Assembly: GCA_963827135.1 (NCBI GenBank)
Contig: CAWGZX010000003.1
Location: forward strand, 1,784-65,783
DNA from: Methanomassiliicoccaceae archaeon
GTDB taxonomy: Archaea; Thermoplasmatota; Thermoplasmata; Methanomassiliicoccales; UBA472
DNA length: 64,000 nt
Direction: 5' to 3'
Each line of letters begins with the position of its first letter. Within the stretch, counting starts at the first letter, position 1. This document shows positions 29,323-37,605 of the stretch, piece after piece. The position numbers were made by a program, and so were the translations under genes. Under the pieces are notes generated by a model, which was not told the origin of the DNA, ran no database searches, and worked only from the letters and a program-made list of their open reading frames with translations.

Positions 29323-29537
29323 TTCTTTTTCGCCTCCATGGTTATCGCCCCGACAGGGCAGAGCTTCACGCAGCGGCCGCATCGGACGCAGGATTCGTTG
29401 AACACCGGCATGACCTCACGCAGGTAGATGGCGTTCTCCGGACAGGTGCCCGCGCACGCGCCGCAGTGCATGCATCTCTCGACCTCGACATGCATCCAGT
29501 CATTCAAGTATACTCCTCCCCGTGCTTCTTCCTCCAT
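29319..29537 (-). CDS. 2x[4Fe-4S] ferredoxin
   Basis: CMHCGACAGTCP and CVRCGRCVKLCP motifs. Alternative start MHVEV at 29495 would remove the 34-nt overlap with the upstream gene. Confidence 0.8.
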   Translation of the reverse strand: MEEEARGGVYLNDWMHVEVERCMHCGACAGTCPENAIYLREVMPVFNESCVRCGRCVKLCPVGAITMEAKKK

Positions 29538-31069
29538 TCGGCTATGGGGATCGAGAACTTCTTCTCGATCTCGGTCCTATAGGTCGGGCCGCCGTTGTAG
29601 GCGCAGAACGGGATGATCCTGCCGTCCGGGGTGGTGTAGTGGATGGCGCAGCGCTTGACCCTCTCCACGTCGTAATTGTAGTTGTCCTGGAAGTGCATGC
29701 CCCCGATGAACATCATGTTCCAGGAGAACTTGGCTATTCCCTCCTTAGAGGAATCGCTGAACACGGCCCCCATCATCTGCAGGAACTTGGTGGTCGATAG
29801 GCCATCAGGGACCTTCTCCTTGATTATGTGCTTCCTCAGGATGTTGAGCGCCTTCACTTTGGAGGGCAGCTTCACATCGGACTTGTCCGCCTTGACGCTG
29901 AGCTCGTACAGTTCCTTGAAGAGGGGCTCGATCTCCACGAACCGCGTCAGGGGCACCACATTGTTCTCGTCCTTGACGAATAGGTAGGTGGCCAGGCCGC
30001 AATGGGGGTGCGTGGTGAAGGAGACCTTGCTCTGCTCCAACAGGGCCGAGGCGAGAGTGGATATCGGCACCACGGTAGGCACGGGGTAGAAGTCGGTCAC
30101 TTTGACCTGCCCGTTGGACTGCTTCTCCAGATCCTTCACCAGGTCTGGCAAGGTGTAGCGATGCTTGCTCCTCTCCTCCTGGTCGATCCTGCCGGTGAAG
30201 GCTACCGGTTGGAAGTTGATCCCACGCACAACATCGATGTTCTTGACTGCGAACTTGTAGATCTCCCCCACCTGGTCGTTGTTCATGTTCTTGACCACGG
30301 TCGGAACCAGGACGATGGATGGAGGTTTCTCCAAATTGCGCACGTTCTCGATGACCTTCAGCTTCGTCTCCAGCAGAGGGGTTCCACGAGATTCCATGTA
30401 AATGTCATCGCGCAACCCGTCGAACTGCAGGTAGATGGTGTTCATACCTGCCCGGGTGGCCGCCTCCAGGAACTTCGGGTCCTTGGCGAACTTGATCCCG
30501 TTGGTGGCGACCTGGATCTGAGCGAAGCCCATCTCCTTGGCCTTGGCTAAGACCTCGATGAACTTGGGGTAGATGGTGGGCTCGCCGCCGGAGAACTGGA
30601 CCGCCGGAGTGGGCACAGGCTTCTGGTCCCTCAGCATCTGGAGCATCTTCACGATCTGCTCGAAGCTGGGCTCGTAGACATAGCCAGCCTGATTGGCGTT
30701 GGCGAAGCAGATCGGGCATTTCAGATTGCAGCGATTGGTCAGGTCCACGTTGGCCAGGCAAGTGTGTGTTAGGTGAAGCTGGCATAGCCCGCACTCGTTG
30801 GGGCAGACCTTGGCATTGGGGATAAATGGGTTCTCGACCCCGGTGCCGTCATAGGCGAAATTCTCCGCTCTAAGGTAAAGGTCCTTGTCCGACCAGTAGA
30901 TGTCCACGATATTGCCGTGGTCCGGGCAATCCTTCTCCATCATCACTTTGCCGTCTTGTTCGAAGATCCTGGCAGGGACGACTCTCTTGCACTCTGGGCA
31001 TAAGGACTCAGTGCTCTTTGGGAGCCCTCTCTTAAGAGCGCTCGGCTTTGCTATCATTGGTGATTGCAC
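29504..31069 (-). CDS. tes: Radical SAM protein, tetraether lipid synthase (Tes / GDGT-MAS)-like
   Basis: 521 aa. N-terminal rubredoxin-like CPEC...CPDHG and radical-SAM CNLKCPICFA. It sits directly upstream of ferredoxin and geranylgeranyl reductase, the same trio I recall around Methanosarcina acetivorans Tes. Confidence 0.65.
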   Translation of the reverse strand: MQSPMIAKPSALKRGLPKSTESLCPECKRVVPARIFEQDGKVMMEKDCPDHGNIVDIYWSDKDLYLRAENFAYDGTGVENPFIPNAKVCPNECGLCQLHLTHTCLANVDLTNRCNLKCPICFANANQAGYVYEPSFEQIVKMLQMLRDQKPVPTPAVQFSGGEPTIYPKFIEVLAKAKEMGFAQIQVATNGIKFAKDPKFLEAATRAGMNTIYLQFDGLRDDIYMESRGTPLLETKLKVIENVRNLEKPPSIVLVPTVVKNMNNDQVGEIYKFAVKNIDVVRGINFQPVAFTGRIDQEERSKHRYTLPDLVKDLEKQSNGQVKVTDFYPVPTVVPISTLASALLEQSKVSFTTHPHCGLATYLFVKDENNVVPLTRFVEIEPLFKELYELSVKADKSDVKLPSKVKALNILRKHIIKEKVPDGLSTTKFLQMMGAVFSDSSKEGIAKFSWNMMFIGGMHFQDNYNYDVERVKRCAIHYTTPDGRIIPFCAYNGGPTYRTEIEKKFSIPIAEWRKKHGEEYT

Positions 31070-31134: not shown

Positions 31135-31884
31135 ATGAATCTAATTGACGTCTTGAAACTGGACCTAGGATCGCTCGAAGACGACTATCGGAAGATTGCG
31201 TCGGTTCTTGAAAAGATAGGCCTCTCCGATTACGAATCTAGGGCCCTCGTCGCCCTGATAATCAAGAACCAAGCCTCCGCCGACGAGGTCGCTGAGCTTT
31301 CCAGGATGCCGCGGACATCTGCATACAAGGCCCTGCAGACGCTCAAGGACAAGGAGTTCATCACCTCCGTGGAAGGTCGCCCCACCATATTCTATCCCGT
31401 TCCGCTTGAGGACGTCAGAGCCAGGGTAATGGGGGAGCTGGAGGAGGTCTTCGACAAGCTGGAGGCAATAAAGGGCCTCCTGAGCGAGAGGGGCACGCCG
31501 CAATTAGTGTACACGATCTCCAGCAAGAGAGGCGTGCTGAGCAAGATCGGCGAGATGCTTGATGCAACCAAGAAGAGCTTCGTCATCTCCACACCGGCAA
31601 TCCAAGAGGTCAGGTTGGAGCATATGCAGCGTTTCAAGGAGGCGATGGCGAGGGGCGTTGAGGTCACGATCATTACTGAACCGATGCTTAAGATCCCCCC
31701 CTGCACCCGTTCCTACCGGAAGAAGGATTTGCTAGCCACCGACGTCATCAGCGATGGCCAGAGCGCTATGATAGCCTCTCCAGACCTTTCGTTGTGCGGG
31801 TTCTCGGACAACCCCTTCATCTCCGCGCATTTGGATAATTTCATGCGCATGGTGATCGAGCGTCTGGACGCCACAACGGATTGA
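31135..31884 (+). CDS. TrmB-family transcriptional regulator
   Basis: The N-terminal winged helix EKIGLSDYESRALVALI...ADEVAELSRMPRTSAYKALQTLKDKEFI matches the TrmB HTH pattern. Start trimmed from TTG 31048 to ATG 31135. Confidence 0.75.
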   Translation: MNLIDVLKLDLGSLEDDYRKIASVLEKIGLSDYESRALVALIIKNQASADEVAELSRMPRTSAYKALQTLKDKEFITSVEGRPTIFYPVPLEDVRARVMGELEEVFDKLEAIKGLLSERGTPQLVYTISSKRGVLSKIGEMLDATKKSFVISTPAIQEVRLEHMQRFKEAMARGVEVTIITEPMLKIPPCTRSYRKKDLLATDVISDGQSAMIASPDLSLCGFSDNPFISAHLDNFMRMVIERLDATTD

Positions 31885-34800
31885 TACTGCGTGGTAGGCT
31901 ACGATTAGTGGGGTCTGAGATAAGTCGCCAGGCCATGGGCAGATGCATGCCCCGAGCCAACGCATCCCTCTCCTCCGTCCTGAAGAGAAGAAATCGCCTT
32001 CAAGGCGATTCCTATGCGCAGGTCTCCTTCTCGGTCGTGGCCGTTCTCCTGCTCACGTTGGCTGGGGCTAGTGCCTTCCTCGCTAGCCAGGCCGATCGAG
32101 AAGCGGATGATGCCATGGCAAGGAGGACCAGTCTAGAGGAACTGTTCCGCTACTCATCCATGGTCGCTCCAGAGGTGGAGGAGCTCGCGTATCGCTCCGG
32201 GCTGAAGGCGTGCGAAGAGCTTCGTTCCTTGAACGAAACGCACCTCGAAGCCAGGTTCCAGGAATTAATGCTTGGAGAGCTGGAAAAAGCCTTTCCTCGT
32301 GAGAAAGGGGGAATGAGGGCCGAGCTCCTGCATAACTCGCTGCATCTTGATTTCCTGCGGCTTTCTCAGGGCGAGCAGATAGTCTCCGCCAGGAATGACG
32401 GCGCGGTCCTCTGGCGGTTGGAGAGCTCCCCCGCATACTTCACAATCACCGGCAACTTCTCCATTTCAATAATGAAGGGGGAAAGTAAGCTTACAGTCGA
32501 CAAAGAGGTGACTAGGCACATATACTTCCCGTCCCCGCTTCTGCTGGATAGGCTCGAGTCCTTCGAAAGGAGCGTCACAGGGGGCAAGAACCGTCTTGAG
32601 AATCTGGTTCGCTACGAGCTCTCTTCTTTGGCGCAATGGCGCGCGCTATGCGGATGGGGCGCGAGCATGGCGTCGGGCGAAAAAACCACCTCCTTCCTTC
32701 TGACCGAGGACGATGCACGGAAGGCTCTGGAACTTGCGCTGATAACCGTCGAGATGGAATGCTTCGGGTCCTTCGACCAAGCCTCTGCGGACGAGGTCCT
32801 GGAGGGATTTCCCTGCCCCATGGACGCTGCCGAGCTCTCCTCCATTCTACAACGAGGGGAGAGGTATGACCCTGCAGACGTTTTTCTCGCGCTCAACGGG
32901 GCCATCGAGCTCGATGTCAGGAAGGTCCTGGCCCAAGCGCTCTACGCTTCGATCGACGTCATCGCCCTGAGGTGGCTGGATTACCTGCGGGTCATCGACC
33001 TATCGGAGCTCATGAAAGGATTGGCCATAGGCGCGTCGGTCGCCATGAACGACGCTCTTGCCACCGTCACGGGCGTGGACAATCTGCAAAGGGCATCGAT
33101 GGATTGGATCAACGGCCGCCTGGAGGAGTCCGAATATTCCGAGGAAGAATATCGCTGGGTCAACTACGCTTCAATGGATGCCATGGTGCTCTTACCGCAT
33201 CGAACCTACGTCTTCCGCAATTATGAGGGGAAGGAGATGACCGCCGACCTGGGAGGCTACCAAGGTCTGGATTTCCCGTCCCTGGATGTGCTATACCAGG
33301 ATTGCTGGAAGGATTTCATGGTCGAGTTTAGGGATGGCTCCTTCAGCACCGGGAACGTCATCCAAGAGTTCGTCGGGACCATCGCCGAGGCCATTGCCGA
33401 AGACTGGAAGGTCCAATCAAGCAGGATCGTCCTCGATCCGTTCGATGACCGCTCCATGATGGAAGAGGTGGAGCAGGCCGTACTGTCGTCTCTCATCTCG
33501 GCCGACGATTGGTTCCCTGATTGCCAAGCGCGAGCCTGGGAAGGATTACCTCAGAATGACCCTCTGGGCCAATCTCTCGTGGATTTCATCGATGCCGAAT
33601 GGCAGGAGGCTTTCCATATGGCAGAGGCTGTTGACGCGGCCGTCGATTCCCTCTCCGAGCGTCTGGTAAGGGAAGCCCTAACGACGAATGGCATCTTCGA
33701 AGAGGGATTGGCCCAAGGCTATGCTGAGATCGTCTCCCACGATATCAAGAATGATCCATCATGGGGTGCTGAGGACAAAGTGCAGGAAGCGTTCACCAGC
33801 AACTTGAGGGGGAGTCTGATCATCCTCACAGAGGTTTTCGGCAACATCACTCTCCCTCAGTCGAAGGTCCAGCTTCGCGATGCCTTGGTCGCTTTCTCAC
33901 AAGGGGCGATAGATGGCGTACCAGGCGTTAGTTGGGCAATTTCGGACGCGTGCTCCAAGATGCTGGAGGACGCCTCGCTCGCCTCCGGGCTGAGGGCGGA
34001 TCGCTATTGGGCCACCCCAGCTCCCGACATAATCGACCTTCAGCTTGCCGGAGGCAGGCATGCCATGGAGAAGCTTCAACCCGAGCTCCGATTGCCGTGG
34101 ACTCAGGACCCTGGCTCTCTTCAGATCGAGATCATCTCACCCCTCGAAGATTATGGCTCCGAGGGCCAAGCCAATACCCATCTGACCGAGCCTGGAAACG
34201 CCTCCTTCGCAGCCTACCAATCATCGTTCAAGGTCCTCCTCACAGGCACGGTGGGCGTTACTCTCGCCTGCTCAGGGGACCTCTCCAAGCTGATCGCTGT
34301 GGCCTCGAAGACAAGCGCCTCCTCCGAGATGCCGATCGCGCTAGGCACTTCCTTCACCTGCTCGTCAGCATGGCCGCTGCAAGGCGTCGACTACACCCCC
34401 ACCTTTACCTTGGATGGTGAGCTGGGAAGGACCTTCATGAGGCTGTGGAACGGGCTCACGGTCGCGCTCGGATGGCTGACCGGCACCGCCAGTGCCGTCT
34501 TCAATCTATTGCAGGAGCTAGTAACAGACCTTGTCTCCTATGCCGCCCAGACCGTTCAAGCGATATCCGATATCCTCGTTGCCATCGTCCAGGAGGTGCG
34601 GGACCTCATCGATGGCGCCATCGGCTCCCTCATCGGCTGGATGGCGGATGCCCTGGTGGACTTGATCGGGTCCCGAAGCATTAAGCTGGAATTCGCAGGG
34701 ATGACGATCGTCTTCGATCTGTCGGCCACGGACATCTTCCTCGGCCGCTCCAAGGAGTACGTCCGGGTGACGGCATCGACCTGCCTGCTGGGGGCGCAGC

Positions 34801-36212
34801 TGACCATCCAGGCCAGGTTCGTGGACATATACCGCCAGGGGCCGGACGTGATCACCAACATGTCCTTGTCAGGTAAGGATTGGAGGGCAGAATGCCTCCT
34901 CGATCCACGGATGATGGTGATGGACCACTTCGTCGAGATACGCGGGCGCTTCCAGGACCTTATGCTAGAGCTCAATATGCCCGAGGTCGTGGCATATGAC
35001 AAGCGCACCCTGCGGCTTTCGGACGTGCCTGGCCTAGGGCAGGCGCTGTCGCGCATCCCTCTGCCAATACCTGGGCTCCTCGCCTCTATAGACCTCGGAC
35101 TGGAGGTCAGGTACGACAGCCCAATCTCCAACCATATGGTGATCAACGAGGTCGAGCTGAACCCTCCGGGCTCCGACCAGGGAAGGGAATGGGTCGAGCT
35201 CTACAATCCTTCGAACCAACCCATCGACCTGATCGGATGGACATTGCGGACCGCGCATGGGGACCAAACCGTCTCCCAGATCGGCGATTCAACCCTCGAG
35301 CCCAAGTCGCACCTCATCGTTATGTTCTTAGGTCAGTCACTGGACAATGGTGGCGAGGCCGGCTACCCCTTGGGGGAGTCCATCGCTCTGATCAGCTCCG
35401 AGGGGAAAAAGGTGGATTCCGTCCCATACATCAGCGACCATTACAACGATGCCCGGACCTGGCAGAGGACCTTCGACGCCGCCGATCGCTGGGGATTCCA
35501 AGATTCCACGAGGGACGGCCCGAACGCTCTCCTTGCGGTCGACTATAACGACATCGAACAGCTGGAGAGGGCTCTCGCCGATGCTGTGGCCAGGGCATTC
35601 GCTATGTTGGGAGATGTCGAGCTGGACCTCGACTCATTGGCAGAGATGTTGCAAGCAGCGATCAACGAGGTCGTGGACACGATCATCGAGGTGATATCGC
35701 GCTCAATCGTCGAGATGTCCCTCTTCATCGAGGTGGGGCTACAGGACTACTCTCAGTCGTTCACCGGCACGATACGGCTCTCGCTGCTGATCACAGGGGA
35801 GGGTGTGAGGGACGTGCTCCTCTGGGTCGCTGATACGATAAGGACCGCCATCGCCGACCTGCTCAATCCGACCGCAGTGGTGCCGAGGGCTCATTCCATC
35901 GGTGAGGTGCTGGACGACGTATACCTGCGTCTCGGGGTCTTTGGCACCGCAGGCCTGCCCAAGCTCATATCCTCGGCCATCTCAGCGCAACGCTTCAATT
36001 TCGGAGCCAACATCGAGCTCAATCTAGCCTCCCTGCTCCCAAGCACGAAAGGAGGCGGCAATGGGACGATGGGCTTCGGAGTGCTTTTCGAGGGAGTGCC
36101 CGGAGGGCTGCTGCGCTCCACCTACCCTGTGGACGCGGACCAGCTTGTCGACGTCTGGCTGATCAGAGCCAGATTGCACCAGGTCCAGGAGGGGGCTCCT
36201 ATGTCGCCATGA
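31881..36212 (+). CDS. Giant (about 1430-1443 aa) orphan protein, N-terminal TM anchor plus one lamin-tail domain
   Basis: Uninterrupted 4.3-kb ORF. Start is ambiguous: TTG 31881 overlapping the trmB-like stop, or ATG 31935/31947. Hydrophobic segment VSFSVVAVLLLTLAGASAFLA. Only the lamin-tail domain is recognisable. Confidence 0.8.
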   Translation: MILRGRLRLVGSEISRQAMGRCMPRANASLSSVLKRRNRLQGDSYAQVSFSVVAVLLLTLAGASAFLASQADREADDAMARRTSLEELFRYSSMVAPEVEELAYRSGLKACEELRSLNETHLEARFQELMLGELEKAFPREKGGMRAELLHNSLHLDFLRLSQGEQIVSARNDGAVLWRLESSPAYFTITGNFSISIMKGESKLTVDKEVTRHIYFPSPLLLDRLESFERSVTGGKNRLENLVRYELSSLAQWRALCGWGASMASGEKTTSFLLTEDDARKALELALITVEMECFGSFDQASADEVLEGFPCPMDAAELSSILQRGERYDPADVFLALNGAIELDVRKVLAQALYASIDVIALRWLDYLRVIDLSELMKGLAIGASVAMNDALATVTGVDNLQRASMDWINGRLEESEYSEEEYRWVNYASMDAMVLLPHRTYVFRNYEGKEMTADLGGYQGLDFPSLDVLYQDCWKDFMVEFRDGSFSTGNVIQEFVGTIAEAIAEDWKVQSSRIVLDPFDDRSMMEEVEQAVLSSLISADDWFPDCQARAWEGLPQNDPLGQSLVDFIDAEWQEAFHMAEAVDAAVDSLSERLVREALTTNGIFEEGLAQGYAEIVSHDIKNDPSWGAEDKVQEAFTSNLRGSLIILTEVFGNITLPQSKVQLRDALVAFSQGAIDGVPGVSWAISDACSKMLEDASLASGLRADRYWATPAPDIIDLQLAGGRHAMEKLQPELRLPWTQDPGSLQIEIISPLEDYGSEGQANTHLTEPGNASFAAYQSSFKVLLTGTVGVTLACSGDLSKLIAVASKTSASSEMPIALGTSFTCSSAWPLQGVDYTPTFTLDGELGRTFMRLWNGLTVALGWLTGTASAVFNLLQELVTDLVSYAAQTVQAISDILVAIVQEVRDLIDGAIGSLIGWMADALVDLIGSRSIKLEFAGMTIVFDLSATDIFLGRSKEYVRVTASTCLLGAQLTIQARFVDIYRQGPDVITNMSLSGKDWRAECLLDPRMMVMDHFVEIRGRFQDLMLELNMPEVVAYDKRTLRLSDVPGLGQALSRIPLPIPGLLASIDLGLEVRYDSPISNHMVINEVELNPPGSDQGREWVELYNPSNQPIDLIGWTLRTAHGDQTVSQIGDSTLEPKSHLIVMFLGQSLDNGGEAGYPLGESIALISSEGKKVDSVPYISDHYNDARTWQRTFDAADRWGFQDSTRDGPNALLAVDYNDIEQLERALADAVARAFAMLGDVELDLDSLAEMLQAAINEVVDTIIEVISRSIVEMSLFIEVGLQDYSQSFTGTIRLSLLITGEGVRDVLLWVADTIRTAIADLLNPTAVVPRAHSIGEVLDDVYLRLGVFGTAGLPKLISSAISAQRFNFGANIELNLASLLPSTKGGGNGTMGFGVLFEGVPGGLLRSTYPVDADQLVDVWLIRARLHQVQEGAPMSP
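35139..35470 (+). other. Lamin-tail domain (LTD) inside the giant ORF
   Basis: VINEVELNPPGSDQGREWVELYNPSNQPIDLIGWTL...LEPKSHLIV matches the INE-x-NP-x-G-x-EW/F-VELYN ... L-x-GW core of LTD modules. Confidence 0.7.
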
Positions 36213-36270: not shown

Positions 36271-37605
36271 ATGGTAGCAGGGCAATGGGCCTCGGCATTC
36301 GGGGCGGAAACATCCGAATGGCTCTCCACCTATGGTTGGCCCCTGCTGCTGCTCTTCATGCTGTTCGTCATCTGTCTCTACATCTGGTCCTATCTCAATA
36401 AGAACCTGGAGAGGATGAAGCGCATCGACTCCGATTACCTCGATTCCGATGTCGTCGAGTACCTGGGACGGATGACCAAGGCCATAATGATCATCGTTCT
36501 CCTCTTCGTACTGGCCTACGTTCTGACACTGATCTGGCCCGAGTTCAACGACCAGGTCTGGGAGCCCTACCTGGGCATCTTCATCCAGATCGTGATAATC
36601 ATCATGGTCCTGATCTTCGCTGGTCTGATCGTCAAGGTGCTTAGGCACTTCTCCCGGCGCTCTAGGATGACTGGTAAAGGTGGCAAGGCGAGGTCGGGGA
36701 GCACAGTGGAGTTCACCAGCCTGCTGCTCTCGTACGTGGTGTACATCGCCGCGGCGGTCGTGGTGGTAATCTTCCTCCTTGCCTTCTTCGCCGATGTTGA
36801 TGCGATAGACTGGCTTTCGGATTTCTGGAACAACGAGAATAATGCTGCTCGAATCGAGGCATTGGTGATATTCCTGGTCGCGGTCATTCTCGTGACTCGT
36901 CTATCCAACGCGATCTTCGAGGACTACAAGTTCCGGACCAAGAAGTTCAACCCTCAGGTAATCGACCTTTTCAAGTCGCTGGTTCGCAACGCGCTGTACC
37001 TGATCGCCATCCTGGTCTCGATCTTCATGCTTTTCGCGATCATGGGGCTGCAAGAGGTCGGCTTGGTGCTCGTTGTGATCATCGTCGTCTTCATCTGCCT
37101 GGTGATAGCCCTCTCCTATGCTACGGTCAAGAACATCATCGCCGGGCTGGCGATAATGAACGCGGACATCTTCAACGTCGGAGAGAAGATCAAGCTGGGC
37201 AAGGACCTGGTGTGCGAGGTGGTGGAGAAGAACCTCATATTCACCAAGGTGCGGACAGAGGATGGGGAGACGGTCAACGTTCCCAACAGCGAGATCATCT
37301 CCGAGAATGTCCTCAACTACAGCCGCTCGGTGGCGCATGGCATCTGGATCAGCTTCGACCTCCCGTCAAGGATACGACACGATGAGGTCGAGAGGCTGGT
37401 AAAGCGGGCGGTTGCCAAGGTCGACGGCCTGATGAAAGAGCCTGCCCCGGAGATATTCGCACGTGACCTGGTTGGGAGCAAGATGAGATACCAGGTGAAC
37501 GCCTATGTGCTGGACGCGCTCAAGGCCAAGCGGGTGCGCTCTGACCTCATCTTCAGCATACAGGAGGAGCTGGCAAGTGATGAGAAGATATCCTTCCTCG
37601 ATTGA
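36271..37605 (+). CDS. Mechanosensitive ion channel (MscS family)
   Basis: Multiple N-terminal TM helices, then NIIAGLAIM...FNVGEKIKLG...VVEKNLIFTKVRTEDGETVNVPNSEI, the MscS pore-helix/beta-domain signature. Confidence 0.85.
   Translation: MVAGQWASAFGAETSEWLSTYGWPLLLLFMLFVICLYIWSYLNKNLERMKRIDSDYLDSDVVEYLGRMTKAIMIIVLLFVLAYVLTLIWPEFNDQVWEPYLGIFIQIVIIIMVLIFAGLIVKVLRHFSRRSRMTGKGGKARSGSTVEFTSLLLSYVVYIAAAVVVVIFLLAFFADVDAIDWLSDFWNNENNAARIEALVIFLVAVILVTRLSNAIFEDYKFRTKKFNPQVIDLFKSLVRNALYLIAILVSIFMLFAIMGLQEVGLVLVVIIVVFICLVIALSYATVKNIIAGLAIMNADIFNVGEKIKLGKDLVCEVVEKNLIFTKVRTEDGETVNVPNSEIISENVLNYSRSVAHGIWISFDLPSRIRHDEVERLVKRAVAKVDGLMKEPAPEIFARDLVGSKMRYQVNAYVLDALKAKRVRSDLIFSIQEELASDEKISFLD

Follow-up and report, generated by a model that had tools for sequence, protein, structure and literature searches.

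Background

When a gene for a giant protein with a lamin-tail domain (LTD) directly follows a regulator gene in an archaeal genome, does the protein serve the regulator beside it or an apparatus encoded elsewhere? The question is raised by a 64,000-nucleotide stretch of archaeal DNA from a Methanomassiliicoccaceae archaeon (contig CAWGZX010000003.1; hereafter the window, G+C ~58%), in which a TrmB-like regulator gene is followed on the same strand by a gene for a protein of 1,425 amino acids (hereafter the giant). A preliminary description, made from the sequence alone, had read this protein as an orphan cell-envelope, adhesion or sensing component whose expression is controlled by the regulator. 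Here we show that the LTD-bearing giant of Methanomassiliicoccales is inherited and lost together with a specific, unlinked set of genes encoding an ATPase of type IV filaments (T4F), its platform protein and two small pilin-like proteins. Because it is co-inherited and co-lost with this one pilus-assembly motor, the giant is most likely part of a surface apparatus that has yet to be studied, rather than a partner of the regulator next to it. The gene lies in the window as follows:

31935..36212, forward strand: giant gene, 1,425 amino acids, with full-length homologues at 27-90% identity; alternative start ATG at 31947.

The Methanomassiliicoccales include methyl-reducing methanogens of human and animal guts, and their cell surface is almost undescribed. 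Literature searches on DUF7286, a Pfam family to which the N-terminal part of the giant is related, and on LTD or pili in Methanomassiliicoccales returned nothing specific. Large adhesin-like, pilin-headed proteins are an already known kind of component in archaeal T4F systems, and the giant is a variant of that kind. Placing it there turns a 'hypothetical LTD protein' into one part of a defined five-to-six-gene apparatus, consisting of the giant, two small pilins, an ATPase with its cysteine-rich (Cys) domain, a platform and a peptidase. The parts of this apparatus are scattered, and locus-based surveys therefore miss it. Across the Thermoplasmatota, DUF7286-type giants are paired with this ATPase type as well, which provides a first functional context for three uncharacterised Pfam families, and the reading of the neighbouring TrmB as the dedicated partner of the giant is corrected.

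Co-inheritance and co-loss of the giant and one ATPase

The genome encodes three T2SSE-type ATPases, two in tandem on contig C5 and a third (ATPase3) on contig C4 (labels of contigs, loci, genomes, genera and families are our own). ATPase3 and its gene set are located as follows:

Contig C4, 4024-5736: ATPase3, a T2SSE-type ATPase of 570 amino acids.
Contig C4, 2276-9307 (locus L047): dispersed T4F gene set, comprising the platform, ATPase3 and Cys-rich open reading frame (ORF), the U32 gene and two small pilin-like ORFs.

Family f6 is fully concordant (24/24 genomes): 15 carry both the giant and ATPase3, and the other 9 carry neither. In a set of 41 related genomes, both occur in 36 and neither in 4, the single discordance (40/41 concordant) being an 82%-complete genome with an ATPase3 fragment at a contig end. 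Phylum-wide, in 301 genomes and with either an LTD-type or a DUF7286-type protein counted as a giant, the giant and an ATPase3 orthologue are both found in 125 genomes and both missing from 159, while the 17 genomes with only one of them are mostly incomplete. At the family level, some families lack both (0/18, 0/21 and 0/9) and others have both (23-24/24 and 10/11); in family f7 the giant is present in 36/36 genomes and the ATPase3 orthologue in 35/36, and a general ATPase model found the ATPase3 type as the only T4F ATPase in 3/3 genomes searched. Six genomes without the giant keep the tandem C5 ATPases, and the link is therefore specific to ATPase3.

The deletions themselves can be located. 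The giant has been removed between TrmB and seryl-tRNA synthetase (SerRS) or the MscS channel gene, and the motor parts are gone from two intervals, FmdE to U32 and U32 to apgM. At the giant locus after loss, three genomes read radical-SAM, TrmB, SerRS, and genome G040 has TrmB followed by an MscS remnant. At the motor locus, FmdE lies 117-170 nucleotides (nt) from U32 in G336 and G339, where U32 is directly followed by p119 or apgM; in two genomes of genus g13, U32 abuts apgM, and neither an ATPase operon nor small-pilin genes lie in the vicinity. The motor locus of these giant-less genomes has cleanly lost the ATPase operon together with both small genes, and a maximum-likelihood tree of the U32 peptidase contains well-supported branches that force at least three independent losses. 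The parts also meet physically in more distant relatives: at loci L057 and L062, from two other Thermoplasmatota families, the giant, small pilin-like genes and a Cys-domain-ATPase3 fusion stand in one cluster, which includes the platform at L057 and reaches the contig edge just past the ATPase at L062.

Several genomes carry irregular or reduced versions of these genes. In G040, a platform fragment (residues 416-556; G040:C25, locus L100, 1244-1681) and an MscS fragment (residues 15-98; G040:C35, locus L083, 292-543) look like scars of recent deletions. Four near-complete genomes of genus g13 (G029, G033, G037 and G342) lack both the giant and an A24-like peptidase and gave no T2SSE-type ATPase match above the cut-off. 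In G335 (g152), the giant is split into two ORFs of 558 and 940 amino acids (C1:23977-26963) and ATPase3 appears as two overlapping matches (C2:52562-54236, locus L102); close relatives are without both, and the splits may represent ongoing decay or an assembly error. The giant of G351 is in three pieces.

Components of the motor locus and a candidate peptidase

The motor has a rigidly conserved context of two blocks, one made up of FmdE, platform, ATPase3 and the Cys-rich ORF, the other of the U32 peptidase, the two small ORFs, p119 and apgM. The Cys-rich ORF (184 amino acids) precedes ATPase3, overlaps its start by 8 nt and forms one operon with ATPase3 and the platform, while L057 and family f7 encode the Cys-rich part and the ATPase as a single fused ORF (720-803 amino acids). 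We identify the platform as the 577-amino-acid membrane protein that follows ATPase3, based on T2SSF matches in two of eight orthologues (best E 5.4e-7).

The two small pilin-like ORFs (148 and 190 amino acids) stand after U32, ~2 kb from the ATPase operon on C4, and both occupy that place in every giant-bearing genome examined. Their heads, 'GG/FxE[AS]' and '[KG][AG]/[MQ]AxLFDAxxFL' (here and below, a slash marks the predicted cut), resemble the head motif of the giant. Four of ten members of the first small-pilin family match DUF7285; a comparison of this family with profiles of the Protein Data Bank (PDB) gave chance-level matches alone, including archaeal flagellin at E 0.25.

A candidate for the processing enzyme is a 293-amino-acid, A24-like membrane protein encoded on contig C5, with the Asp motifs 'SYSDW' and 'GGADAK'. 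Its orthologues elsewhere pass the PF01478 cut-off once neighbouring stretches are summed; they are present in family f7, in which no T4F ATPase other than ATPase3 was found, and absent from four genomes without any T4F ATPase, a pattern consistent with the role of a prepilin peptidase.

Gene model and pilin-like N-terminus

The frame from 31881 to 36212 on the forward strand is uninterrupted and holds 1443 codons counted from a TTG that overlaps the TGA stop of the upstream TrmB-like gene. The N-termini of homologues line up with the in-frame ATG at 31935 (or with ATG 31947), giving 1,425 amino acids and a 50-nt gap to the TrmB stop, and ATG 31935 is likely to be the start. The giant gene is a real gene. 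Its long open frame, with either a TTG overlap or a 50-nt gap, had been recognised in the preliminary description, together with a single N-terminal hydrophobic helix and an acidic, Cys-poor composition, and on all of these points our analysis agrees: Kyte-Doolittle hydropathy gives a single hydrophobic stretch at residues ~26-53 (numbering of the 1,425-residue protein, as throughout), the isoelectric point is 4.49, and the protein contains 12 Cys and 202 Asp plus Glu vs 112 Lys plus Arg. Six N-x-S/T sites lie between residues 100 and 1376, at positions kept in 11-23 of 25 homologues. The features at and before the N-terminus are:

31885..31934, forward strand: spacer of 50 nt from the TrmB stop to the giant start, with no obvious AT-rich box by eye.
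31935..32018, forward strand: residues 1-28, basic N-region (KRRNR) to the predicted class III signal-peptidase site SYA/QVSF, after the family consensus [KR][GA]/Q[VM][SP]F[SA].
32019..32093, forward strand: residues 29-53, the only hydrophobic helix (QVSFSVVAVLLLTLAGASAFLASQA) by hydropathy, a would-be pilin-like helix.
31986..32819, forward strand: residues 18-295, N-terminal module homologous to the N-terminal part of Pfam DUF7286 by hhalign.

As judged from its residues, the N-terminus of the giant is built like an archaeal class III (type IV pilin-like) signal peptide. All giant relatives carry [KR][GA]-Q-[VM]-[SP]-F-[SA]-x-[VI]-A-V-x-L-L right behind a short basic stretch, F32 and A36 are invariant in 25 aligned giant sequences, and the head motif with its ~20 hydrophobic residues is kept in giant relatives down to 25% identity. 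The family consensus therefore fits the three features of a class III signal (basic N-region, [KR][GA] site and ~20 hydrophobic residues), the window copy having Tyr at position -2. A genome-wide regular-expression scan for other proteins headed by 'GQxSF' returned the giant itself and nothing else.

For comparison with DUF7286, true members of the family were gathered from other Thermoplasmatota and nine were aligned for profile-profile comparison. Against these nine, the giant-family alignment gave an hhalign probability of 96.4% (E 1.3e-9) over 263 columns at residues 18-295. The window giant has no match to Pfam DUF7286 (PF23957) at E<=1 and does not reach the gathering cut-off of 27 bits, and a six-frame search of its own genome found no DUF7286. 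Sub-threshold matches occur in 5/25 giant homologues (best whole-protein E 9.2e-5); where one was examined, it covered the first ~55 positions of the profile. In true members the strongest match is the C-terminal block (profile positions ~894-1000), whereas the hhalign match to the giant covers the N-terminal module alone. By these profile comparisons, the N-terminal module of the giant is a distant relative of DUF7286 and a non-member by the Pfam threshold.

Body, lamin-tail domain and C-terminal region

The remainder of the protein is divided as follows:

32820..35129, forward strand: residues 296-1065, helical then beta-rich body without a match to a Pfam family or solved structure.
35130..35432, forward strand: residues 1066-1166, LTD (PF00932, 49.5 bits vs a cut-off of 34.3).
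35502..36209, forward strand: residues 1190-1425, C-terminal mixed alpha/beta region without a transmembrane segment, from the AlphaFold model.

The LTD of the giant is bona fide by sequence and fold. It makes up ~7% of the protein, all 25/25 giant homologues match PF00932, and Foldseek pairs it with the Ig-like domain of lamin A/C at a probability of 1.00 (E 6e-4). Searches of the window giant and 25 homologues against Pfam and NCBIfam gave the LTD alone, plus the weak N-terminal DUF7286 matches.

For the body (residues 296-1065), Pfam returned nothing and a PDB sequence profile search gave 0 matches. The AlphaFold2 model of residues 1-1050 is of moderate quality (predicted local distance difference test (pLDDT) 63.7, predicted template-modelling score (pTM) 0.40) and shows one long helix at 32-95, then beta-sheet at 122-196, then a helical region; Foldseek found nothing convincing for it in the PDB (best E 0.28). 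The model of residues 980-1425 (pLDDT 76.8, pTM 0.69) matched the lamin Ig-fold alone in a Foldseek search of the PDB. Across Pfam, NCBIfam, PDB profiles and Foldseek, no curated S-layer or adhesin domain and no solved structure was found for the giant beyond its LTD, so that these sensitive searches assign the body to no known S-layer or adhesin family.

These results modify the architecture first proposed. The lone LTD, then placed at amino acids 1087-1197, is confirmed as the sole Pfam domain at 1084-1184 in the numbering of the 1443-codon frame. The ~1050 residues said to precede it without a recognisable domain are indeed without a match from residue 296 to 1065, but the first ~300 are homologous to DUF7286 by hhalign, and the region after the LTD, described as helical, is modelled as a mixture of helix and beta-sheet.

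Distribution of the giant family

A word-indexed search retrieved 26 full-length relatives of the giant at 27-90% identity, and six-frame searches located it in 36 of the 41 related Methanomassiliicoccales genomes and in 16/17 genera of the order, nearly always as a single copy. An exhaustive profile search with the pre-LTD body gave 462 cluster representatives, of which 225 reach E<=1e-30, so that the label 'orphan' has to be abandoned. Distant relatives of 1,500-2,100 amino acids share profile positions ~7-390 and ~740-1040 and carry a PKD, Big_5 or C39-like peptidase module, which replaces the LTD or stands besides it; other LTD proteins from the word-indexed search have nothing in common with the giant beyond the LTD. 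In phyletic profile, the giant tracks ATPase3 rather than TrmB.

An outside location is suggested by the conserved N-x-S/T sites, by modules of extracellular type and by the basic residues that precede the anchor, and the giant is probably a membrane-anchored, extracellular component of the envelope or of adhesion. To that extent the original proposal of a cell-envelope or adhesion protein is upheld by the single N-terminal anchor, the six conserved sites and the PKD and Big_5 modules of relatives, whereas its coupling to the regulator is not.

The TrmB-like regulator and other neighbouring genes

The genes next to the giant in the window are:

31135..31884, forward strand: TrmB-like regulator gene (PF01978, 65.8 bits vs a cut-off of 25.6), likely start ATG 31135, frame open from TTG 31048.
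29504..31069, reverse strand: radical-SAM gene with HMPTM zinc ribbon (PF04055 and PF23545; tetraether-lipid locus), divergent from TrmB.
36271..37605, forward strand: gene for an MscS-type mechanosensitive channel (PF00924, 53.5 bits), the downstream neighbour in most, not all, families.

Further neighbours in the window are mevalonate kinase (mvk), geranylgeranyl reductase (GGR) and SerRS, and the order mvk, GGR and radical-SAM, then TrmB, giant and MscS, is kept in most families of the order. The upstream gene was correctly called TrmB-like, as its PF01978 score attests; no sugar-binding domain was found in its product, which gave a weak PLD-like match alone. Adjacency of TrmB and giant holds in most of the order and breaks down in three families. 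In families f2 and f3 (L013, L014 and L015), an opposite-strand membrane gene of 452-480 amino acids, cation/H+ antiporter-like, lies between the two, and in family f7 no TrmB gene was found at the three loci examined, though the giant is in every genome. Five giant-less genomes retain an intact TrmB next to the divergent radical-SAM gene, its constant partner also where the giant is missing. TrmB thus stays with radical-SAM after loss of the giant and was not found at the f7 loci examined, and it is therefore not dedicated to the giant; its constant partner is the lipid operon. The control of the giant by the regulator, as initially stated, is not supported by these comparisons, although the giant may be co-transcribed from the TrmB promoter in this genome.

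MscS was considered as a functional partner of the giant and found unsupported. Several genomes have no MscS beside the giant, and the removal of MscS along with the giant in the deletions is explained by contiguity.

Proposed role and alternatives

We favour, as the better-supported and reasonably probable explanation, that the giant is a modular pilin-like subunit or adhesin of a dispersed T4F-type apparatus. It would enter the membrane with the basic N-region on the cytoplasmic side and the remainder outside, and would be cut before Gln29 by the A24-type class III signal peptidase. The pair of ATPase3 and platform could then pull the hydrophobic N-terminal helix from the membrane, so that it and the helices of the two small pilins pack together as a short filament or pseudopilus. 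Such a filament would hold the 150-kDa body at its tip or side, with the LTD, inserted in a beta-rich domain, as an exposed and variable binding head, and the likely role of the apparatus would be attachment or recognition at the archaeal surface. A bolder version, which we regard as rather doubtful, is that the ATPase/platform pair is a dedicated display machine that lifts the 150-kDa pilin-headed protein, the two small pilins serving as a stub and no ordinary pilus being made. In that case the reduced, gut-associated family f7 would have it as its chief or sole surface apparatus, and the attachment of these methanogens to hosts or partners would be determined in part by this machine, via the LTD.

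Several observations weigh against a role as filament subunit. The window copy reads SYA/QVSFSVVAVLLL, which puts Tyr (codon TAT, within 32013-32018), and not Arg or Lys, at -2 of the predicted cut; that position is Arg or Lys in an 86%-identical relative and in most other giant relatives. At +1, true DUF7286 proteins carry Arg, which is atypical for such a site. The A24-like peptidase of this genome scores 20.7 bits with PF01478, below the cut-off of 26.5, and 12 of 14 distant giants examined have no ATPase3 within ~10 kb. As clade-mates are not independent, the large counts overstate the statistics, and the weight of the association lies in the ~3 co-losses, the family-level pattern and the two clustered loci. 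To our knowledge, a 1,400-residue subunit has no described precedent in an archaeal filament.

Some of these points would suit a static, membrane-anchored coat protein or adhesin with an uncleaved signal anchor, whose co-loss with the ATPase would be set by a shared lifestyle such as surface attachment. A single N-terminal anchor, conserved sequons and the atypical -2 residue of the window copy are what such a protein could have, and most giants are not encoded beside the ATPase. We nevertheless consider it unlikely: genomes without the giant keep other T4F systems, and this ATPase type and the two small pilin-like genes alone go with the giant; concordance is near-perfect across the whole phylum, with physical clustering in two lineages; and the conserved polar-then-hydrophobic head, in the style of the small pilins, exceeds what a generic anchor needs. 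The same co-inheritance and clustering would be expected if the giant were instead a structural part of the machine, that is, a base, sheath or envelope-spanning scaffold required for assembly of a small-pilin filament. The profile regions conserved phylum-wide (the N-terminal ~390 and ~740-1040), as opposed to a variable inserted module, fit this idea, and some large T4F-linked proteins have been suggested to make the envelope ready for the filament (PMC13705601). Variable binding-type modules (LTD, PKD, Big_5) suit an exposed head better, however, and there is no second membrane segment; a scaffold seems to us improbable, even though the present data do not discriminate firmly between it and a filament-borne subunit or adhesin.

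Finally, TrmB, giant and MscS might form a TrmB-controlled unit for sensing or adjusting the envelope, linked to the tetraether-lipid genes, which would account for a gene order conserved in most families of the order and for a 50-nt gap compatible with co-transcription. This is very improbable in view of the intact TrmB beside radical-SAM after deletion of the giant, the lack of TrmB at the three f7 loci, the transporter gene interposed in f2 and f3 and the missing MscS in several genomes; moreover, synteny is rigid across the order, at the ATPase locus too, so that adjacency weighs little.

Relation to described systems

Among described systems, those closest to the giant include the uncharacterised, archaeal pilin-like families DUF7286 (PF23957), DUF7285 (PF23956) and DUF7284 (PF23955), the first of which is homologous to the giant over its N-terminal ~280 residues. 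DUF7286 proteins and the giant share the style of head, [GA]-[RQ]-[IVM]-[PS]-F-[SA] followed by a hydrophobic helix, and both co-occur with orthologues of the same ATPase, the small partner here being DUF7285-like. They differ in that the giant is without the conserved C-terminal block (profile positions 894-1000), is ~400 amino acids longer and has an LTD, and in that its genes are dispersed whereas the DUF7286 set is a coupled trio. With other prokaryotic LTD (PF00932) proteins the giant has the domain in common and nothing else.

Bacterial modular type IV pilins and tip adhesins, such as PilB and PilC of Streptococcus sanguinis or those of the PilY1 type, combine a pilin helix with a grafted binding module on a filament and are several-fold smaller than the giant. 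Foldseek and PDB profiles gave no sequence or fold match between them and the giant.

Among archaeal T4F, subclade 4F has been described with an ATPase carrying a Cys-rich N-terminal extension, a single platform gene, several pilin-like proteins and a large 'adhesin-like' protein (Makarova, Koonin & Albers 2016, PMC4858521; Sivabalasarma & Albers 2026, PMC13705601). The system of the giant shares these traits, including the Cys-rich extension (a separate 184-residue ORF here, fused elsewhere), the single platform, the pilin-like proteins and the large protein; no cetZ2, CBS or SMC neighbour was seen here, however, and the giant could not be matched to arCOG02945. In the bindosome of Sulfolobales, proteins with class III signals are encoded away from the BasEF assembly machinery (PMC13705601). 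By analogy, both systems would combine large non-pilin proteins, with pilin-type N-termini and genes apart from the ATPase/platform locus, with assembly at the surface involving a few small pilin-like proteins. The cargo of the bindosome is sugar- and solute-binding proteins, whereas here it is a 1,425-residue LTD protein with no ABC transporter neighbour. A 2016 survey reported Methanomassiliicoccus to be without secretion ATPases (PMC4858521); this absence holds for one genus (g13), which is an exception in the order.

A further T4F system of this genome lies at C5:655219-669144, where the two tandem ATPases stand with two TadC-like genes, a pilin headed 'ERG/VASTVG' and an adjacent gene for a 2,336-amino-acid protein with a Sec signal. 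The locus is retained in genomes that have lost the giant, and its two ATPases, both kept after that loss, were rejected as the motor of the giant.

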